64,000 nucleotides of DNA, taken from an uncultured bacterium (GTDB lineage Bacteria; Patescibacteriota; Dojkabacteria; J137). The first letter of the stretch is position 1; every line of letters starts with the position of its first letter. The position numbers were made by a program, and so were the translations under genes. The stretch is from positions 445,511-509,510 of the forward strand of contig OY969472.1 of assembly GCA_963700155.1 (NCBI GenBank). Reading direction: 5' to 3'. Shown here piece by piece: positions 8,834-22,766 of the stretch. Under the pieces are notes generated by a model. It ran no database searches. It was given only the letters and a program-made list of their open reading frames with translations, and was not told the DNA's origin.

Positions 8834-9370
8834 ATGAGTAATAATACAATTGAACTTGAAAATATAACCGAAGCTATATATTACATCAGAGGGATGAAGG
8901 TAATGTTGGATTTTGATCTTGCATCATTGTATGGAGTTGAGAACAGAGCTCTAAAACAGCAGGTTCGAAGAAATTTGGATAGATTCCCAGAAGATTTTAT
9001 GTTTGAGCTAACTAGGGAAGAGTGGACTGAGCAAGTCACAAACAGTGACTTGCTCAAAAAATTTAAATTTATAAAGACACCTCCTTTTGCATTTACAGAG
9101 CAGGGAGTTGCGATGCTATCTAGTGTTCTTCGAAGTACACGAGCTATCCAAATTAATATCTCTATTATGCGCGCTTTTGTTGAAGTTAGGAAATCAATTG
9201 GCAGAAATAATGTTATTACCAAAAAATTATCTGAGCTCGAAAAGCGCGCGGATCTAAAATTTCTTCAATATGATGAACAGTTCAGAATTATTATGGAAAT
9301 AATACAAGGAATGAATAATGAAGATTCAGAAAAAAATAATCGAAAGATTGGCTTCAAAACAGATTTATAG
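8834..9370 (+). CDS. ORF6N-domain protein (phage/plasmid-associated anti-repressor-like)
   Basis: KVMLDFDLASLYGVENRALKQQVRRNLDRFPEDFMFELT ... FAFTEQGVAMLSSVLRSTRAIQINISIMRAFV matches the conserved core of the ORF6N/KilA-N-like family. Confidence 0.7.
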   Translation: MSNNTIELENITEAIYYIRGMKVMLDFDLASLYGVENRALKQQVRRNLDRFPEDFMFELTREEWTEQVTNSDLLKKFKFIKTPPFAFTEQGVAMLSSVLRSTRAIQINISIMRAFVEVRKSIGRNNVITKKLSELEKRADLKFLQYDEQFRIIMEIIQGMNNEDSEKNNRKIGFKTDL

Positions 9371-13805: not shown

Positions 13806-16800
13806 GTGCACAAAGTTAACTCAATAAACAGAAGAGAATTTTTCATTGCTATATTTAGCATTCTTTTTTGTATATTTATTTTACTCAATCAAAGAATTCA
13901 GCATGTATTCGCAGCTTCAAATAGTACAATTTCTATCCAAGGTAAAATTGTAGATAAAAACGACGGGACTAATGTAACTTCGTCAAGTGTAGCTTGCATA
14001 AATAATGGAGGTCCGGATGCTTGCAAATTTAGAGTTAGTATTTATGATGGAAATACTGGAAGCGATACTCTACTATGGCAAGAAACTCATACAAATGTTG
14101 AAATCGGGGATACTGGAGGAATATTTAATTTGAACTTGAACTCAATTTGTGGAAGCTGGGACAATCCCACTACTCCATGCAGTGGAAGTGGAATTACTTG
14201 GGGCAGCGGGGATCTATATATTCAAATCGATGTTGATGTAGATAATGACAATAGTTATTCCGAATCCTTCCCCGCTGCCCCGGCAGATAGACCGTTATTT
14301 ACTAGTGTTCCATATTCATACTACTCTGATGTTGCTGGGACAGTTCCTGCAAACAGTTTAGATTTCACTGAGTTTAAAGATACAATGACATTAGATAATT
14401 CAACTATTATAGATTTTGGATCATCTACAAATAGTTTTACTCTTCTAAATAATGGTTCTGGTGATGGTATTGTAAATTTAACTTCTACTGGTGGATTTAA
14501 TATCCAAAGTGGTGGTAACACATACGCACAATTCACGGCAGCCGGAAATGTAGGAATTGGATTAGCTACAGCACCGGATGGGAAATTACAAATTAAAACA
14601 GATAGTACTGCTGCATCGGGTAGTACTTACGGACTGCATGTTAATGGTTCACAATCTACTGCAAATTCAGGTTCTTATTATGGAGTATATTCAAATCCAA
14701 GTTATACTGCTGCCTCCGGTAATACGTTAAGTTTTCTTTATGGAGGCAATTTTAGCCCCTATAACGGATCAACAGGAACAATTTCATATTTATATGGTCT
14801 ATATAGTGGACCTAATAATACTGTTGGGGGTTCGATTGGTTCAATCTATGGGTTAAGTGCAGCACCAACAAATTCTTCAAGTGGTTCTATAACATCAATG
14901 TATGGAATTTCAGCTGTAACTATAAAATCAGGCACTGGTACAATTGGTACTGCATATGCATTGTATGGACAAGTGAGGAATAATAACGCAACTGGGGCAA
15001 TTACAACTGGATATGGTCTTTATATCGACACACCAGCCACAACTGGAGCTATTACAAATAACTGGGGTATTTATCAAGCTGATACTGCAGGCTTAAACTA
15101 TTTTGGAAATAAAAGCAGTTTTGGAACAACTACTGCGACAGCATATTTAAATTTAGCTCCAAGCACCACATCACAAGCTAGTTTAAGATTAGTAAGCAGT
15201 GCAGGCACAGATCCTTCTTCTGCTAATAGTGGAGATTTATGGTGGAATGGAACTAACCTTTACTTTAATGATGGTGGCTCAAATACTGATCTCTTAGCTG
15301 GAGGTGGTTGTGGAGGTAGCTGCTTTGAACAGGGAGGAAATGCTTTTGGTGCAACTGGTGTTCTTGGTACAACAGATTCTAATGATGTCTCAGTTATAAC
15401 TAATGGAACTAATAAATTATATATACAAGATTCTACCGGTAATGTTGGTGTTGGTAATAATAATCCTACTTCACTTTTCTCGGTTGGCTCTTCATCTGAA
15501 TTTCAAATAGATTCTTCTGGTAATATCGTTAACTTAGGTGGTGCTGCTCATTCTATTGCTAACTCATCTGGTGCTCTTAATATTGATTCTGCTTCAACAG
15601 GAGCTATTAATATTGGGACATCTTCTAATGCTAAAACTATTACTGTTGGTAACACTACTGGTGCTACTGGTTTAGTCTTTAACTCTGGTACAGCTGGTAT
15701 TTCATCTACTTCTACTGCGACATCTGGTAATGCATTTTCATATACTGCTAATTCTCTTAGTAGTGGTAATGGTCTTTATGTTACATCAACCGCTGCTTCC
15801 TTCTCTGGTTCTTTAGCTAAAATTTTCTGGAATCCTACTTCTGGTAGTACTGCTACTGGTGATTTATTTACTATTGACACTGCTGGTGGAAGTGTTTTAG
15901 GTAACTTATTCAATGTTAAAGATGGTGGTAGTTCTTTATTCTCTGTTTCTCAGACTCAGGTCACTTCCACCATTCCTGTTCAATTTAATGCTCCTGGTGA
16001 TGTTGCAATTGCGTATGATATTGTTTTAACAAATCCTGTAGCATCATTTGTAAAGTCAAACTCTAATTTAAATTTACAGGCTGGAGCATCTTTTGCATCA
16101 TCAAATTTAACTTTAAGTACATTTAATAGCGGGATGATCGTTCTTGATTCTGCTACTGTTTATGCTAATGGGAATGTAGGCATCGGAGTCTCTCCTTCTT
16201 ACAAGCTTGATGTTCTGGCAAGTGGGACAGGAGTAATCGCTAGATTTAATAGCGCTAATACTACTGGTTGTACTCTAGCTACTGGTGGAACTATTTCTTG
16301 TTCTTCTGATGTTAAATTAAAACAAGATATTGCTGATATTAATTATGGAATCGGCACTGTAATGCAGCTTAGACCTGTCTCATTCAACTGGAGAAATCAA
16401 GATAATCCTTATAAAAGTTTAGGGTTTATTGCACAAGATGTTAATTCAATTTTACCTAATTTAGTAACAGTTGATTCAGCTTCTGGGAACATGGAGTTAA
16501 ATTCTATCGGATTTATTCCAATATTAACTAAAGCAATCCAAGATCAGCAGGAAGAGATTACTGCAATGCAGTCAGTTTTAGGTATTTCAACAAACGGGAG
16601 TGCAGCTCATATTTTAACGCAGGAAAATATTCTAAGTTATTTAAACAATACAACAATTCCTAATTTTAAAGTTAAAAAAATCACTATAAATGAACAGCTT
16701 ATTGCTAAATCTGTTGTAGTCGTAGGTGATACTACGTTTATTGGTAAGGTTAGTGTTGGAAGCGATACTGCAGGGAAAGCAACTATAAAAGCAGGGGAAA

Positions 16801-17012
16801 GTAATGTTAAGGTAATGTTCTCATCATCATATCAAGAAGCACCTATTGTAACTGTAACCGCCGTAAATTCATCTGTAATCTATAAAGTTAAAAATATTTC
16901 AAACAATGGATTTACAATCGAATTGAGTAATCCAGAGACAAGCGATATTGAATTTAATTGGATTACAGTTGGAATAACTCAAAGTACACCAGCTTCATAC
17001 CCACTTAATTAA
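13806..17012 (+). CDS. Large secreted fibre-like protein: Gly/Thr/Ser-rich beta-repeat body + tail-fibre intramolecular chaperone (Peptidase S74-like) domain + C-terminal H-type-lectin-like domain
   Basis: 1068 aa with an N-terminal TM/signal. CSSDVKLKQDIADINYGIGTVMQLRPVSFNWRNQ...LGFIAQDVNSILPNLV matches the Ser-Lys autoproteolytic chaperone domain of phage tail spikes and endosialidases. The terminal segment VKVMFSSSYQEAPIVTVTAV...NNGFTIEL...IEFNWITVG resembles an H_lectin domain. Confidence 0.7.
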   Translation: MHKVNSINRREFFIAIFSILFCIFILLNQRIQHVFAASNSTISIQGKIVDKNDGTNVTSSSVACINNGGPDACKFRVSIYDGNTGSDTLLWQETHTNVEIGDTGGIFNLNLNSICGSWDNPTTPCSGSGITWGSGDLYIQIDVDVDNDNSYSESFPAAPADRPLFTSVPYSYYSDVAGTVPANSLDFTEFKDTMTLDNSTIIDFGSSTNSFTLLNNGSGDGIVNLTSTGGFNIQSGGNTYAQFTAAGNVGIGLATAPDGKLQIKTDSTAASGSTYGLHVNGSQSTANSGSYYGVYSNPSYTAASGNTLSFLYGGNFSPYNGSTGTISYLYGLYSGPNNTVGGSIGSIYGLSAAPTNSSSGSITSMYGISAVTIKSGTGTIGTAYALYGQVRNNNATGAITTGYGLYIDTPATTGAITNNWGIYQADTAGLNYFGNKSSFGTTTATAYLNLAPSTTSQASLRLVSSAGTDPSSANSGDLWWNGTNLYFNDGGSNTDLLAGGGCGGSCFEQGGNAFGATGVLGTTDSNDVSVITNGTNKLYIQDSTGNVGVGNNNPTSLFSVGSSSEFQIDSSGNIVNLGGAAHSIANSSGALNIDSASTGAINIGTSSNAKTITVGNTTGATGLVFNSGTAGISSTSTATSGNAFSYTANSLSSGNGLYVTSTAASFSGSLAKIFWNPTSGSTATGDLFTIDTAGGSVLGNLFNVKDGGSSLFSVSQTQVTSTIPVQFNAPGDVAIAYDIVLTNPVASFVKSNSNLNLQAGASFASSNLTLSTFNSGMIVLDSATVYANGNVGIGVSPSYKLDVLASGTGVIARFNSANTTGCTLATGGTISCSSDVKLKQDIADINYGIGTVMQLRPVSFNWRNQDNPYKSLGFIAQDVNSILPNLVTVDSASGNMELNSIGFIPILTKAIQDQQEEITAMQSVLGISTNGSAAHILTQENILSYLNNTTIPNFKVKKITINEQLIAKSVVVVGDTTFIGKVSVGSDTAGKATIKAGESNVKVMFSSSYQEAPIVTVTAVNSSVIYKVKNISNNGFTIELSNPETSDIEFNWITVGITQSTPASYPLN
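15600..16700 (+). repeat. ~1.1-kb near-identical duplicated segment, copy A (partner at 21306-22415), mosaic with a more divergent ~200-bp core
   Basis: Direct nucleotide comparison: 15600-16010 versus 21306-21715 and 16215-16695 versus 21920-22415 differ only by scattered SNPs. 16010-16215 versus 21715-21920 is clearly more divergent. Confidence 0.8.
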
Positions 17013-17380
17013 GGAGTAGAATTTGAATTACTTTGAGAGATTTGGGCTACATTTACAATCTTATTTACAGATGCTCTATAAATAATTGCCTCAGAAGTAA
17101 AAATAATTAGAGTATCACCATTAACAGCATTTTTATAAAATTCCGGGTCTTCGTTTTTTAACTGGTCAATATTACTAATAGTAGCAATTTTAGGATTAGA
17201 CTCATCGGGTAATATTATTAAGTCAGTAAGATTAGAAATAATACTTTCTTTTGTTGATTGTTGAGATTGTAAATCTACTTGATTTTTTAAGATCACATAT
17301 TGATATACCAAGAAACCCATTACAGTTAAGAAAATGAGCACTATTAGAATTAACAAAATATTTTTATTTTTTTTAACCAT
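17009..17380 (-). CDS. Small single-pass membrane protein carrying one copy of a novel ~45-aa repeat (shared with 35988-36707)
   Basis: 123 aa. The N-terminal TM is ILLILIVLIFLTVMGFLVY. The repeat is ...PKIATISNIDQLKNEDPEFYKNAVNGDTLIIFTSEAIIYRASVNKIVNV. Confidence 0.55.
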   Translation of the reverse strand: MVKKNKNILLILIVLIFLTVMGFLVYQYVILKNQVDLQSQQSTKESIISNLTDLIILPDESNPKIATISNIDQLKNEDPEFYKNAVNGDTLIIFTSEAIIYRASVNKIVNVAQISQSNSNSTP

Positions 17381-17498: not shown

Positions 17499-20400
17499 TT
17501 GAAATTGAACAAAATTACTAAAATAATAATTTTAGCTTTCTTAGTCTTTGGGTTTATTTTACCTACTTTAAGTTTAGATGCATCAACAAGAAGTACAATT
17601 GAATTTAAATCTGGAATAGTTGACCAAGATGGTACTCCACTATCTGATGGAATTTATAATTTTGGATTTATAATCTTTAATCAATCTACTGGGGGTTCAT
17701 CACTTTGGAGCGAAAATTGGTCAAGTGTCGAAGTAAGGAGAGGTCAAGTTAGTGTAGATTTAGGATCTATAAATCCTTTTCCTGATTCCTTGTTTGCTAA
17801 TGATTCTTTGTACCTTCAAGTTTGTTTAAATGCTAATGGAATAGCAGGAGATGGTTCTGGATCTTGCGGTGGAAATTATGAAGAAAGTTTTAGTCCAAGA
17901 AAAGCTATAACAGCAGTAGCATGGTCATATAGGGCAAACACTCTCTCATCTGTAGATATAGCTAAAGATGAAACTGCATATAATCTTAATATATACGGAG
18001 ACTCGGGAACGCTATTAAATTTAAATTTCAATAGTACTAGCCAGTTTAATATAGGTTCAGCAGGTAGTTTATCACTAGGAACTGGAAATAGTTCTTTCTT
18101 ATTCTCGCCAACAAGCAATTCTATTAATTTGACAGGAACAACAGATATATATTTCGGTGCTAACGCTTCCCTCAGGAACAACTCATCTTCAGAAAATTCA
18201 GGTGCAAATATTATTGGGGTTTATACTGAAGGACTTCAAAATATAACAGGAAATACTTTGCAAAAAGTAATAGAAAATATCGATGGATTATTTAAATGGA
18301 AGCCAGGTACATCATCTTCAATTTCTTATAGTGGTGGAAATGTAGGAATTGGAACAACCACACCTAATTATTTATTAGATGTAAATGGGACAGGAAGTTT
18401 TTCAGGTGGATTAAAAATAGGAAACACAACAACAGGGGTGGCTGGAATGTTAAGATGGAACGGATCAGATTTTGAAGGATATAATGGAAGCTCTTGGAAT
18501 TCTTTAACTTCAGGTGGCGGAGGGGGCAGTCCATCTGGAAGCGATGGATATATACAATTTTATAGCTCAGGATCATTTGGGAGCAGTGCTAATCTTAATT
18601 GGAATATAGCAAATAGCTATTTAACAATTGGCTCATCAGCCGGGACTTCGGGAATACTAAATTTAGGACCAGCCACTACAACAAGATCCTCATTAAATTT
18701 AGCAAACTCTTCAGGGGTAAATGTTTCTAGTCCAACATCAGGAGATTTATGGTGGAATGGAACAAATCTTTATTTTTATAATGGATCATCAAATGTTGAC
18801 TTATTGGCTAGTGGCGGAGGCTCATGTGCTACATGCTTTCATCAAAGTGGAGATGCATTTGGAACAACAGCTACTTTAGGAACTACAGATTCAAATACAT
18901 TATCAATTATTACAAATAATACACCAGCTATTACTATATTAAGTGATGGGAAAGTTGGTATCGGGGTATCTCCTACTGTAAAACTTGATGTGGCCGGAGC
19001 TGTAACTTTAACAGGTGTTTTAACAACTGGAAGCTCAGCAATCTCATTAACATTAGCAACAGGTTACATTGATGCTAATGCAATTACATTATCTGGTTCA
19101 ACATTAGATGTCACTTCGAATGGACTTAAAGTTGCTGATGGTGGTATTACTGGTACTCAACTAAATTCAAGCGTAGCTGGGACTGGTCTAACAGGAGGAG
19201 GAGGCTCTGCTTTATCTGTTCTTTATGGATCATCTGCTGGTAATGCTGTTCAAGGGAATACTTCAATAACTGTTAGTGCTGGATCGGGATTAGGAGGTGG
19301 TGGAAGTATTACTTTAGGAAGTGGCGGAACTGTCACTTTGAATAACGCTGGTGTTACTGCTTTCAATACTTTTACTGGTGGTATAACTTTGAATGGAACG
19401 ACAAATCAAGTTAATATTGATAATAATTCAGGGACTATTACACTTTCTACACCTCAGGATATTGACAGTTCCGCCACACCAACGTTTGCCGGAGTCTTGC
19501 TTTCAGGCTTATCTGCAAGTTCTGCAGTCTATACAGATGGATTAAAAAATTTAACAACAACTGCTCCAACTACAGGAGCTATAGGATATTTAAGTAGAAC
19601 CGGGACAACATTATCTCCAGCAACTGCAGGAGATAACTTTACCACATCAGGTGATATTTCGACTTCAGGTTCAGGTACTATTACATCAACAGGGTTATTA
19701 ACAGGAAATTCTGGGTTAACAGTTTTAGGGACAACTTCGATTAATGCTTCTGGAATTGGGACTACAACAATCGGAAGTGGATCGGGAACAGTTACAATTG
19801 CAGATGGAACTGGTAATTTAAATTTAGGTAATAGCTCAGGAACATTCTCTTTAACATCAAATGGTGGATTAAATGTTACAACTGGGGGAAATATTACTGC
19901 TGGTACATATAATGGGAATACTTTAACGTCTACAGCATTAACTTTCTCGGGTTCTAATCCAAATATTTCCCCATCTACAGGAAATACCGGAATAACAATT
20001 AACGCAAATGGGAGCGGAACGATCGGAATTGGAGCGACTTCAACTGGAGATATATTATTGGGTGGAGGTAGCGGTTCTACAGGTTGTACAATCGAAAATT
20101 CTACAGGAAATCTAACTTGTTCCGGAACAATAAGTGGATCGAATACTACAAATTATTGGAGCAGAGTGGTTACAACATTATCTCCAGCTACTGCAGGAGA
20201 TGATATAACTACAGCTGGGAATATTTACACCTCAAGTTCAGGCACTATTACATCAGATGGTTTAATAACTGGAAATTCTGGGTTAACAATTTTGGGGACA
20301 ACTTCGATCAATGCATCAGGCACAGGAACAACTACAATTGGAAGCGGGTCTGGAATTGTAACTATTGCTAATGGAACTGGTAACTTAGCTTTAGGAAATT

Positions 20401-22766
20401 CCACTGGAACATTCTCTTTAACATCTAATGGTGGTCTAAATGTCACTAGCGGTGGGGTGCTAATGGGTGCAACTGGAATAAATACTACCGATGCAACAAG
20501 TTTAGCAATAGGTAATGCTACTGGAACTTTTTCTTTAACCTCAAATGGAGGATTAAATGTAAGTACAGGGGGAGCTCTTACAGGTGTAGTAAGTATAAAT
20601 TCAACAGATACCTCAGATTTGGATATTGGCAATTCATCAGGAACACTCACATTAACATCTAATGGTGGCTTAAATGTAACAAGTGGAGGTGCCTTAACAG
20701 GTGTTGCTAGTATTAATACAATTACTACAACTTCCTCTGCATTAACTTTTGCTGGGGCCGGAACCATTTCGGCTTCTTCAACAGGTTTGGATATTCAATC
20801 TGATGGGAGCATTGACGTTAATATCGCCGGAGGTTCCGGCTCCACTGGCTGTACAATTGAGAACTCTACAGGTAATTTAATATGTTCCGGTACAGTAAGC
20901 GGGACCAATATTACAAGTAACTATTGGAGTAGATCAGTAACAACATTATCACCTGTAAATGTTGGAGATAACATAACTACATCAGGTTCTGGGACAATAA
21001 CATCAGCTGGGTTACTAACTGGCTCAAATGGAATTACTGTAACAGGAGGTGATGCAAATATTAATGCTTCAGGTACTTCTAACACATCAATAGGTAATGG
21101 ATCTGGAACATTTGATATTACTTCTAACGGCGGATTAAATGTAAATACGACTGGAGACTTAACTGGAGTAGCTAGCATTGATACAATAACAACAACTGCA
21201 ACTAGTTTAGGGTTTGCGGGAACTGGAACAATATCTTCCGGTGCTGGAACTGACTTAAATATAACATCAGGAACTACTGGAATATTAAACTTAGATTCAG
21301 GCTCAACAGGAGCTATTAATATTGGGACATCTTCTAATGCTAAAACTATTACTGTTGGTAACTCTACTGGTGCTACCGGTTTAGTCTTTAACTCTGGTAC
21401 AGCTGGTATTTCATCTACTTCTACTGCGACATCTGGTAATGCATTTTCATATACTGCTAATTCTCTTAGTAGTGGTAATGGTCTTTATGTTACATCAACT
21501 GCTGCTTCCTTCTCTGGTTCTTTAGCTAAAATTTTCTGGAATCCTACTTCTGGTAGTACTGCTACTGGTGATTTATTTACTATTGACACTGCTGGTGGAA
21601 GTGTTTTAGGTAACTTATTCAATGTTAAAGATGGTGGTAGTTCTTTATTCTCTGTTTCTCAGACTCAGGTCACTTCCACCATTCCTGTTCAATTTAATGC
21701 TCCTGGTGATGCCACATTTGCTTATGACTTAGTTTTGACTAATACAACTGCATCATTTGTGAAGTCTGACTCTAATTTAAATTTACAAGCTGGTGAAGTA
21801 TTCAACTCATCAAATTTAACTTTGAGCACTTTTAACAGTGGGATGATTGTTCTTGATACAGCAACGGTCTACACTACAGGGAATGTAGGAATTGGTACAA
21901 CACCTTCATATAAACTTGATGTTCTAGCAAGTGGGACAGGAGTAATCGCTAGATTTAATAGCGCTAATACTACTGGTTGTACTCTAGCTACTGGTGGAAC
22001 TATTTCTTGTTCTTCTGATGTTAAATTAAAACAAGATATAGCTGATATTAATTATGGAATCGATACGGTAATGCAACTTAGACCTGTCTCATTCAACTGG
22101 AGAAATCAAGATAATCCTTATAAAAGTTTAGGGTTTATTGCACAAGATGTTAATTCAATTTTACCTAATTTAGTTACAGTTGATTCAGCTTCTGGAAACA
22201 TGGAGTTAAATTCTATTGGATTTATTCCAATATTAACTAAAGCAATCCAAGATCAGCAGGAAGAAATTACTGCAATGCAGTCTGTTTTAGGCATTTCAAC
22301 AAATGGAAGTGCTGCTCATATTTTAACGCAGGAAAATATTCTAAGTTATTTAAACAATACAATAATTCCAAGTTTTAAAGTTAAAAAAATCACTATAAAT
22401 GAACAGCTTATTGCACAATCAGTAATTGTGATTGGAGATACTCAGTTTTATGGGCAGGCTGATTTTAACAATAATGTAAATGTAAAGGATAAAATCAGCC
22501 TTGGGAAAAATGGAGCTGGGAAAGTAACAATAAAATCTGGAGCTACAAAAGTTTCAGTTAAATTTAACTCTGCATATAACCAAACTCCTATTGTTAGCGT
22601 TTCCCCAAATAATATATTACCGAGTGGAACAAATTATGCAGTTACAAATATTAGTAAATCGGGATTTGATATTGAAATAAGTTATTCTACAAATTCAGAT
22701 ATTGAGTTTAGCTGGATAGCAGTTGGAACAACAATAGATTTACCTGTTTCATATTCAAGCAACTAA
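17499..22766 (+). CDS. Giant secreted fibre-like protein (1755 aa), paralogue of 13806-17012: internal Gly/Thr repeats + S74-like chaperone domain + H-type-lectin-like C-terminus
   Basis: It has an N-terminal signal/TM. It shares the blocks SGDLWWNGTNLYF...C..CF..G.AFG and SSDVKLKQDIADINYGIDTVMQLRPVSFNWRNQ... with the 13806 protein. It contains long in-frame internal repeats. Confidence 0.75.
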   Translation: MKLNKITKIIILAFLVFGFILPTLSLDASTRSTIEFKSGIVDQDGTPLSDGIYNFGFIIFNQSTGGSSLWSENWSSVEVRRGQVSVDLGSINPFPDSLFANDSLYLQVCLNANGIAGDGSGSCGGNYEESFSPRKAITAVAWSYRANTLSSVDIAKDETAYNLNIYGDSGTLLNLNFNSTSQFNIGSAGSLSLGTGNSSFLFSPTSNSINLTGTTDIYFGANASLRNNSSSENSGANIIGVYTEGLQNITGNTLQKVIENIDGLFKWKPGTSSSISYSGGNVGIGTTTPNYLLDVNGTGSFSGGLKIGNTTTGVAGMLRWNGSDFEGYNGSSWNSLTSGGGGGSPSGSDGYIQFYSSGSFGSSANLNWNIANSYLTIGSSAGTSGILNLGPATTTRSSLNLANSSGVNVSSPTSGDLWWNGTNLYFYNGSSNVDLLASGGGSCATCFHQSGDAFGTTATLGTTDSNTLSIITNNTPAITILSDGKVGIGVSPTVKLDVAGAVTLTGVLTTGSSAISLTLATGYIDANAITLSGSTLDVTSNGLKVADGGITGTQLNSSVAGTGLTGGGGSALSVLYGSSAGNAVQGNTSITVSAGSGLGGGGSITLGSGGTVTLNNAGVTAFNTFTGGITLNGTTNQVNIDNNSGTITLSTPQDIDSSATPTFAGVLLSGLSASSAVYTDGLKNLTTTAPTTGAIGYLSRTGTTLSPATAGDNFTTSGDISTSGSGTITSTGLLTGNSGLTVLGTTSINASGIGTTTIGSGSGTVTIADGTGNLNLGNSSGTFSLTSNGGLNVTTGGNITAGTYNGNTLTSTALTFSGSNPNISPSTGNTGITINANGSGTIGIGATSTGDILLGGGSGSTGCTIENSTGNLTCSGTISGSNTTNYWSRVVTTLSPATAGDDITTAGNIYTSSSGTITSDGLITGNSGLTILGTTSINASGTGTTTIGSGSGIVTIANGTGNLALGNSTGTFSLTSNGGLNVTSGGVLMGATGINTTDATSLAIGNATGTFSLTSNGGLNVSTGGALTGVVSINSTDTSDLDIGNSSGTLTLTSNGGLNVTSGGALTGVASINTITTTSSALTFAGAGTISASSTGLDIQSDGSIDVNIAGGSGSTGCTIENSTGNLICSGTVSGTNITSNYWSRSVTTLSPVNVGDNITTSGSGTITSAGLLTGSNGITVTGGDANINASGTSNTSIGNGSGTFDITSNGGLNVNTTGDLTGVASIDTITTTATSLGFAGTGTISSGAGTDLNITSGTTGILNLDSGSTGAINIGTSSNAKTITVGNSTGATGLVFNSGTAGISSTSTATSGNAFSYTANSLSSGNGLYVTSTAASFSGSLAKIFWNPTSGSTATGDLFTIDTAGGSVLGNLFNVKDGGSSLFSVSQTQVTSTIPVQFNAPGDATFAYDLVLTNTTASFVKSDSNLNLQAGEVFNSSNLTLSTFNSGMIVLDTATVYTTGNVGIGTTPSYKLDVLASGTGVIARFNSANTTGCTLATGGTISCSSDVKLKQDIADINYGIDTVMQLRPVSFNWRNQDNPYKSLGFIAQDVNSILPNLVTVDSASGNMELNSIGFIPILTKAIQDQQEEITAMQSVLGISTNGSAAHILTQENILSYLNNTIIPSFKVKKITINEQLIAQSVIVIGDTQFYGQADFNNNVNVKDKISLGKNGAGKVTIKSGATKVSVKFNSAYNQTPIVSVSPNNILPSGTNYAVTNISKSGFDIEISYSTNSDIEFSWIAVGTTIDLPVSYSSN
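19550..20990 (+). repeat. Intragenic tandem-like coding repeats within the 1755-aa fibre gene
   Basis: Repeated protein units: LSPATAGD..T.G.I.TS.SGTITS.GL(I/L)TGNSGLT(V/I)LGTTSINASG.GTTTIGSGSG.VTIA.GTGNL.LGNS.GTFSLTSNGGLNV, and GGSGSTGCTIENSTGNL.CSGT.SG.N.T.NYWSR.VTTLSP. The underlying nucleotide copies are about 85-90% identical (for example 19600-19870 versus 20190-20460, and 20060-20215 versus 20825-20985). Confidence 0.7.
21306..22415 (+). repeat. ~1.1-kb near-identical duplicated segment, copy B (partner at 15600-16700)
   Basis: Same comparison as above. It covers the S74-like chaperone domain region of both fibre genes. Confidence 0.8.

Follow-up and report, generated by a model that had tools for sequence, protein, structure and literature searches.

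A Peptidase_S74 domain in series with a terminal beta-sandwich knob in two predicted surface fibres of Candidatus Dojkabacteria: a possible self-excising pro-domain

The Peptidase_S74 domain is the self-cleaving intramolecular chaperone of phage fibres such as the K1F endosialidase, T5 pb1 and S16 gp37, where it ends the protein. Its catalytic Ser and Lys, at +5 spacing, have been proven for endoNF (S911/K916), MyRF (S587/K592) and T5 pb1 (S1264/K1269), and the active site is completed by an upstream Arg contributed by the neighbouring chain (R897 in endoNF, R1250 in T5). The T5 chaperone is released once cleaved. In RBP_11 of phage Bas54 the S74 domain and the coiled coil that follows it are both absent from the map of the mature virion (bioRxiv 10.1101/2024.10.28.620165).

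A non-C-terminal S74 domain is known from the ICA region of the eukaryotic membrane-bound transcription factors MYRF and MrfA. In MYRF, a trimerisation-dependent Ser-Lys self-cleavage splits two functional halves; the downstream part comprises a TM helix and a luminal domain, and the DNA-binding domain set free by the cut is on the same membrane side. By analogy only, the procollagen C-propeptide may also be compared: it is a globular C-terminal domain for trimerisation and chain selection that registers a long trimeric fibre and is then removed. It is unrelated in sequence and fold to the proteins described here, and a separate protease removes it, whereas self-cleavage is proposed below. The other module of interest is the beta-sandwich knob (PF24146, K1-lyase_C; PF21882, Gp53-like_C) that makes up the very C-terminus of tailspikes, R-type pyocin fibres and K1 lyase. 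In these proteins nothing separates it from the beta-helix or shaft, and the mature trimer keeps it. This fold forms the structural C-terminal knob of tailspikes, a sugar site not being shown there (PMC8822698), and the sugar sites of K1 lyase lie in its beta-helix, with none in the C-terminal domain of the solved example. Phage fibres of class TC12 have both an S74 module (D21) and a lectin-like head (D69), but as alternative C-termini of related fibres; the two proteins analysed here, FibA and FibB, have them in series (bioRxiv 10.1101/2024.10.28.620165).

The window, to which all coordinates refer, is a stretch of 64,000 nucleotides (positions 445,511 to 509,510 of contig OY969472.1). The ORF table places both fibre genes on the forward strand:

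13806..17012, + strand: FibA, surface fibre gene, 1068 aa, GTG start
13806..13916, + strand: FibA N-terminal signal peptide or signal-anchor (MHKVNSINRREFFIAIFSILFCIFILLNQRIQHVFAAS), from sequence and hydropathy
17009..17380, - strand: 123-aa ORF between FibA and FibB with an N-terminal hydrophobic segment, a neighbour only
17499..22766, + strand: FibB, 1755 aa, TTG start, N-terminal signal sequence, internal repeats

FibA and FibB are paralogues and are taken to be fibres of a Candidatus Dojkabacteria (CPR/Patescibacteria) cell, with a predicted trimeric state. The exact FibA protein is present in a public collection, on a contig of 1,140,724 bp, and the protein P0124 is 99.9% identical to FibB. 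The signal peptide or anchor of FibA is predicted from a Kyte-Doolittle maximum (19-residue window) of 2.19 at aa 13; the internal repeats of FibB have spacings of 567-nt and 117-nt. The NCBIfam search returned no model for FibA, FibB or the neighbours tested, and the 123-aa ORF had no match in Pfam, NCBIfam or PHROG. An ORF6N anti-repressor-like gene is found at 8834-9370. FibA and FibB differ from phage fibres in belonging to a cellular chromosome and in carrying an N-terminal export or anchor signal.

The S74 features of the two proteins, with the dyad placed by alignment column, are as follows:

16287..16580, + strand: FibA Peptidase_S74 / intramolecular chaperone domain (Pfam PF13884), envelope aa 828-925
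16305-16466, + strand: FibA S74 Pfam core, aa 834-887
16305..16307, + strand: Ser834 codon (TCT) of FibA, predicted nucleophile
16320..16322, + strand: Lys839 codon of FibA (Ser +5), predicted general base
21996..22289, + strand: FibB Peptidase_S74 domain (Pfam PF13884), envelope aa 1500-1597
22014-22175, + strand: FibB S74 Pfam core, aa 1506-1559
22014..22016, + strand: Ser1506 codon of FibB, predicted nucleophile
22029..22031, + strand: Lys1511 codon of FibB, predicted general base

An earlier note on this DNA, made from the sequence alone, had reported that both ORFs carry CSSDVKLKQDIADINYGI(G/D)TVMQLRPVSFNWRNQDNPYKSLGFIAQDVNSILPNLV...ITAMQ and had read this as a self-cleaving S74-like chaperone, a Ser-Lys autoprotease. 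The interval it gave, 16240-16700, corresponds to FibA aa 812-965, that is, the S74 domain and part of the linker behind it. We found the motif in both proteins, and PF13884 matches both far above chance level, with 47.9 bits (E 1.7e-12) for FibA and 50.7 bits (E 2.2e-13) for FibB against a Pfam gathering cutoff of 22 bits. The isolated S74 segment scored 52.9 bits with the same profile, and a custom S74 HMM gave E values of 9e-40 (FibA) and 1e-39 (FibB). The Ser-x4-Lys pair is intact in each (S834/K839 and S1506/K1511), at the catalytic positions and with the +5 spacing of endoNF, MyRF and T5 pb1; neither column varies among the 44 relatives aligned. The GFIAQ and P117 motifs, also common to the phage chaperones, are kept as well, and as in those phages the domain comes after a fibre shaft ending in GNVGIG-type repeats, with a cut predicted directly before the Ser. 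The predicted scissile bonds are Ser833|Ser834 in FibA and Ser1505|Ser1506 in FibB. For the active-site Arg, Arg813 of FibA is a candidate placed without confidence, since it lies 21 residues before the Ser rather than 14; its column is conserved in the closest relatives only, the Arg of the others standing five columns earlier.

The top Foldseek match of the FibB C-terminal model was the MyRF ICA domain 7dc3 (prob 1.00, TM 0.62 on the target, E 1.7e-3), and the AF2 pLDDT is ~90 across the S74 part. S16 gp37 (6f45) matches the S74 region by sequence (E 0.002). Confidence in the fold is moderate, since what was modelled is a single chain of FibB; for FibA the fold was read off this near-identical copy.

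The domain is non-terminal in FibA and FibB. The earlier note had put the sequence following ITAMQ at about 110 residues; there are in fact ~140 in FibA and ~155 in FibB (235 and 250 from the Ser to the protein end), of which the beta-domain itself makes up ~77-80 aa. That note also called the arrangement unusual, which is borne out among S74 relatives, more than 100 of 120 of which end 0-11 residues past the domain, but is tempered by the precedent of MYRF and by the family members described below. The segments behind the S74 domain are:

16581..16745, + strand: FibA linker from S74 to knob, aa 926-980, modelled on the FibB copy
16746..16976, + strand: FibA terminal beta-sandwich knob, aa 981-1057, family profile E 2.1e-22
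22491..22730, + strand: FibB terminal knob (beta-sandwich, H-type-lectin fold), aa 1665-1744
22551-22724, + strand: FibB Pfam H_lectin match, aa 1685-1742

The linker stretch is of low confidence in the AF2 model of FibB. Fold searches on the model show the knob as a six-stranded antiparallel beta-sandwich and group it with HPA, discoidin (I/II) and SLL-2. Tailspikes, R-pyocin fibres and K1 lyase have this fold too, as the knob that closes their trimers at the C-terminus. Many phage tail-fibre tips so folded carry the name H-type lectin domain, and the R-pyocin feet, again of the same fold, are reported to bind sugars. With Pfam H_lectin (PF09458, gathering cutoff 24 bits) FibB scored 26.7-28.9 bits and FibA 13.4-16.1 bits, the latter as a partial match over aa 1001-1052. 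The H-type lectin end that had been proposed for both proteins is therefore recovered in FibB and in the fold, but is sub-threshold in FibA. PF24146 (K1-lyase_C) had no match in the tails of FibA and FibB even at E<=10, and the close relative P0001 reached 28.0 bits with it (cutoff 27). Among 88 knob homologues found with the family profile, 69 match PF24146 and one matches H_lectin (E<=0.01). Because most homologues match K1-lyase_C, and because the fold is structural in tailspikes, carbohydrate binding by the knob must be considered unproven. Sequence and profile searches of PDB sequences with the knob gave nothing meaningful and no sequence-level match to a solved lectin. A tblastn search of phage genomes with the post-S74 segment gave only weak matches (E 0.006-0.7), all of them to tail or virion proteins where annotated. 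Overall the domain calls of the earlier note are supported: the S74 hits are significant, the Ser and Lys are in place, and an H_lectin hit exists in the terminal segment of one of the two proteins.

The knob family comprises 3,935 representatives, and in nearly all of the best 150 of these the knob is at the extreme C-terminus. An S74 domain lies upstream of it in 30 of the 74 representatives of at least 400 aa among these 150, and at least 38 among the best 150 cluster representatives show the S74-then-knob layout. The layout is thus widely recurrent, in many uncultured bacteria. The dyad could be examined in 36 diverged representatives that have both S74 and knob with the S74 N-terminus present, and it is kept in all 36; judged by this conservation, and by the different self-cleaving chaperone, Peptidase_G2 IMC, that stands ahead of the knob in other members, cleavage is probably retained in S74-plus-knob fibres. 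In about 44 of the 74 long members, however, no self-cleaving domain was detected; there the knob stays on the protein, so that its function must be compatible with permanence. A scan of genome contigs with the single protein returned only one Patescibacteria locus. One locus considered as a phage region (L004) was rejected, as it is an error-rich assembly in which the same architecture is broken by frameshifts. In the literature searched for S74 combined with an H-type lectin the combination is undescribed, one paper mentioning both in different proteins. The S74 domain and the knob fold are each known; for their series in cellular fibres we found no published description.

Comparison of the paralogues shows where they diverge. 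BLASTP aligns FibA and FibB with 82% identity over 497 aa, and one block is near-identical between them:

15564..16685, + strand: FibA aa 587-960, near-identical to FibB aa 1259-1632, covering the distal shaft, the S74 domain and the first part of the linker

Codon comparison by block gave 93-100% nucleotide identity to FibB over FibA aa 616-960, with the exception of a ~75% patch at aa 736-796; a 300-nt direct repeat, 98% identical, lies within the shared block. Identity collapses near aa 960-976, and the last ~110 aa, at the knob end, share ~50% protein identity.

We tentatively favour, at somewhat less than even confidence, a reading in which the S74-linker-knob segment is a self-excising assembly pro-domain and not a permanent tip, the knob acting before cleavage. 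The fibres, built of phage tail-fibre modules, would be exported or anchored through the N-terminal hydrophobic signal, and the three chains would fold from the C-terminus first. Ser834 (Ser1506 in FibB), activated by Lys839 (Lys1511), would then cut the preceding bond, leaving Ser833 or Ser1505 as the end of the mature fibre, while S74, linker and knob would depart as a single trimeric unit of 235- or 250-aa. Before the cut, the knob would give the trimer a further nucleus at the C-terminus and set the register of the chains. It may also pick partner chains and so keep mixed FibA/FibB trimers from forming, since the two proteins have near-identical shaft ends and S74 domains but knobs that are only ~50% identical. 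This chain selection is a hypothesis founded on one paralogue pair, and the identity boundary could just be where a gene-conversion tract stops. The knob may bind sugar, but the model does not need it to. Still more tentative, and in our judgement rather doubtful as a whole, is the wider proposal of an undescribed and widespread CPR pro-domain whose knob nucleates trimers and sorts chains, and whose excised unit may persist as a free trimeric mini-lectin in contact between episymbiont and host.

A lectin role for the knob after cleavage, the reading of the earlier note, stays a serious rival, although we hold it to be on the unlikely side. The trimeric S74-linker-knob fragment would here be a working adhesin, either as a detachable sugar-binding cap held non-covalently on the fibre end or as a shed, soluble trimeric lectin for host or self glycans. 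The H_lectin score of FibB, the likeness of the fold to the sugar-binding HPA, discoidin I/II and SLL-2, and the naming of phage fibre tips all agree with this, as does the divergence of the knob as a cassette between the paralogues, which is expected of a specificity determinant; for chaperones that resemble intramolecular chaperone domains, a 'transient cap' behaviour has been put forward. On the other side stand the sub-threshold score of FibA and the 69 of 88 relatives assigned to K1-lyase_C, whose solved example has no sugar site in this domain. Furthermore, known S74 chaperones dissociate once cleaved, and an adhesin behind the cut would therefore be lost from the fibre.

That no cleavage occurs, with the S74 domain a permanent trimerising joint and the knob a fixed distal tip, we consider improbable. 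Tailspikes, pyocin fibres and K1 lyase do keep the knob permanently at their C-terminus, although none of them, unlike FibA and FibB, places a self-cleaving S74 between shaft and knob; it is permanent too in the family members without a detected chaperone domain, and the uncertain position of the active-site Arg is a further point in favour. However, if there were no catalysis it would be difficult to account for a dyad kept in 36 of 36 diverged S74-plus-knob proteins and in all 44 relatives aligned, and the other S74 motifs are intact.

Much less probable again is a switch of the MYRF kind, in which the knob would tether the fibre, for example to a cell-wall glycan, and the S74 cut would free the long N-terminal part. 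MYRF is a precedent for a non-terminal S74 domain as a release device and provides the best structural match, and some giant relatives have an N-terminal MerR HTH. In FibA and FibB, unlike MYRF, the segment behind the S74 domain is an extracellular beta-sandwich knob. The N-terminal hydrophobic anchor or signal in FibA, FibB and the relative P0204 (a TM helix in P0204) nevertheless places the C-terminus distally and not at the cell. Known S74 cleavage is, moreover, constitutive on folding. Release of a transcription factor was rejected, as FibA and FibB lack a DNA-binding domain and as, in the HTH-bearing relatives, the membrane separates the HTH from the S74 domain, which is the wrong topology.

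Tail fibres of a prophage, tailocin or contractile injection system, in place of cellular surface fibres, are scarcely credible at this locus, which is on a Candidatus Dojkabacteria (CPR) chromosome and is no prophage. The relatives do carry the record name 'tail fiber domain-containing protein', PHROG matches the fibre to 'long tail fiber protein distal subunit' and 'baseplate wedge subunit', and the ORF6N anti-repressor-like gene is nearby; but the two tail-fibre matches are restricted to the shaft end and S74 region (the weaker baseplate-wedge match, aa 527-926, extends further into the shaft), both proteins have N-terminal signal or anchor sequences, and the neighbours tested gave no phage match, whether capsid, tail, baseplate, sheath or terminase. 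The flanking genes encode surface proteins (LamG giants, DUF2341) and housekeeping functions, with rpoB, rpoC and rpsL downstream of the fibre genes and RpoB relatives in Dojkabacteria, and a scan of viral contigs returned no relative. The gene of the relative P0204 likewise has cellular neighbours, namely genes for sortase, MreB and prepilin peptidase, its contig being 412-kb long. A polymorphic toxin was rejected, the terminal domain being a beta-sandwich knob with no toxin fold and no immunity gene (the only small ORF adjoining the fibres runs on the other strand and matches no family); S74 is also absent from the releasing peptidases listed in PMC3482391.

Most CPR/Patescibacteria are uncultured, and what is known of them points to a life attached to other cells. 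Contact is probably made through their giant surface proteins, and to our knowledge almost none of these has a known mechanism. CPR fibres now gain a concrete, testable maturation step with a defined predicted cut, Ser833|Ser834 in FibA, and the locus illustrates how cells took up a phage folding device and changed its layout, the changed form recurring across many lineages. Should the excised fragment be no more than a discarded folding aid, known phage biology would be modestly extended. Should the knob sort chains or be shed as a lectin, it would represent a new use of S74 besides phage fibre maturation and MYRF activation, and would offer a handle for expressing or engineering long trimeric fibres. 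If the wider proposal is true, bacteria would have in this pro-domain their own counterpart of the procollagen C-propeptide, made from two modules that phages use as alternatives.

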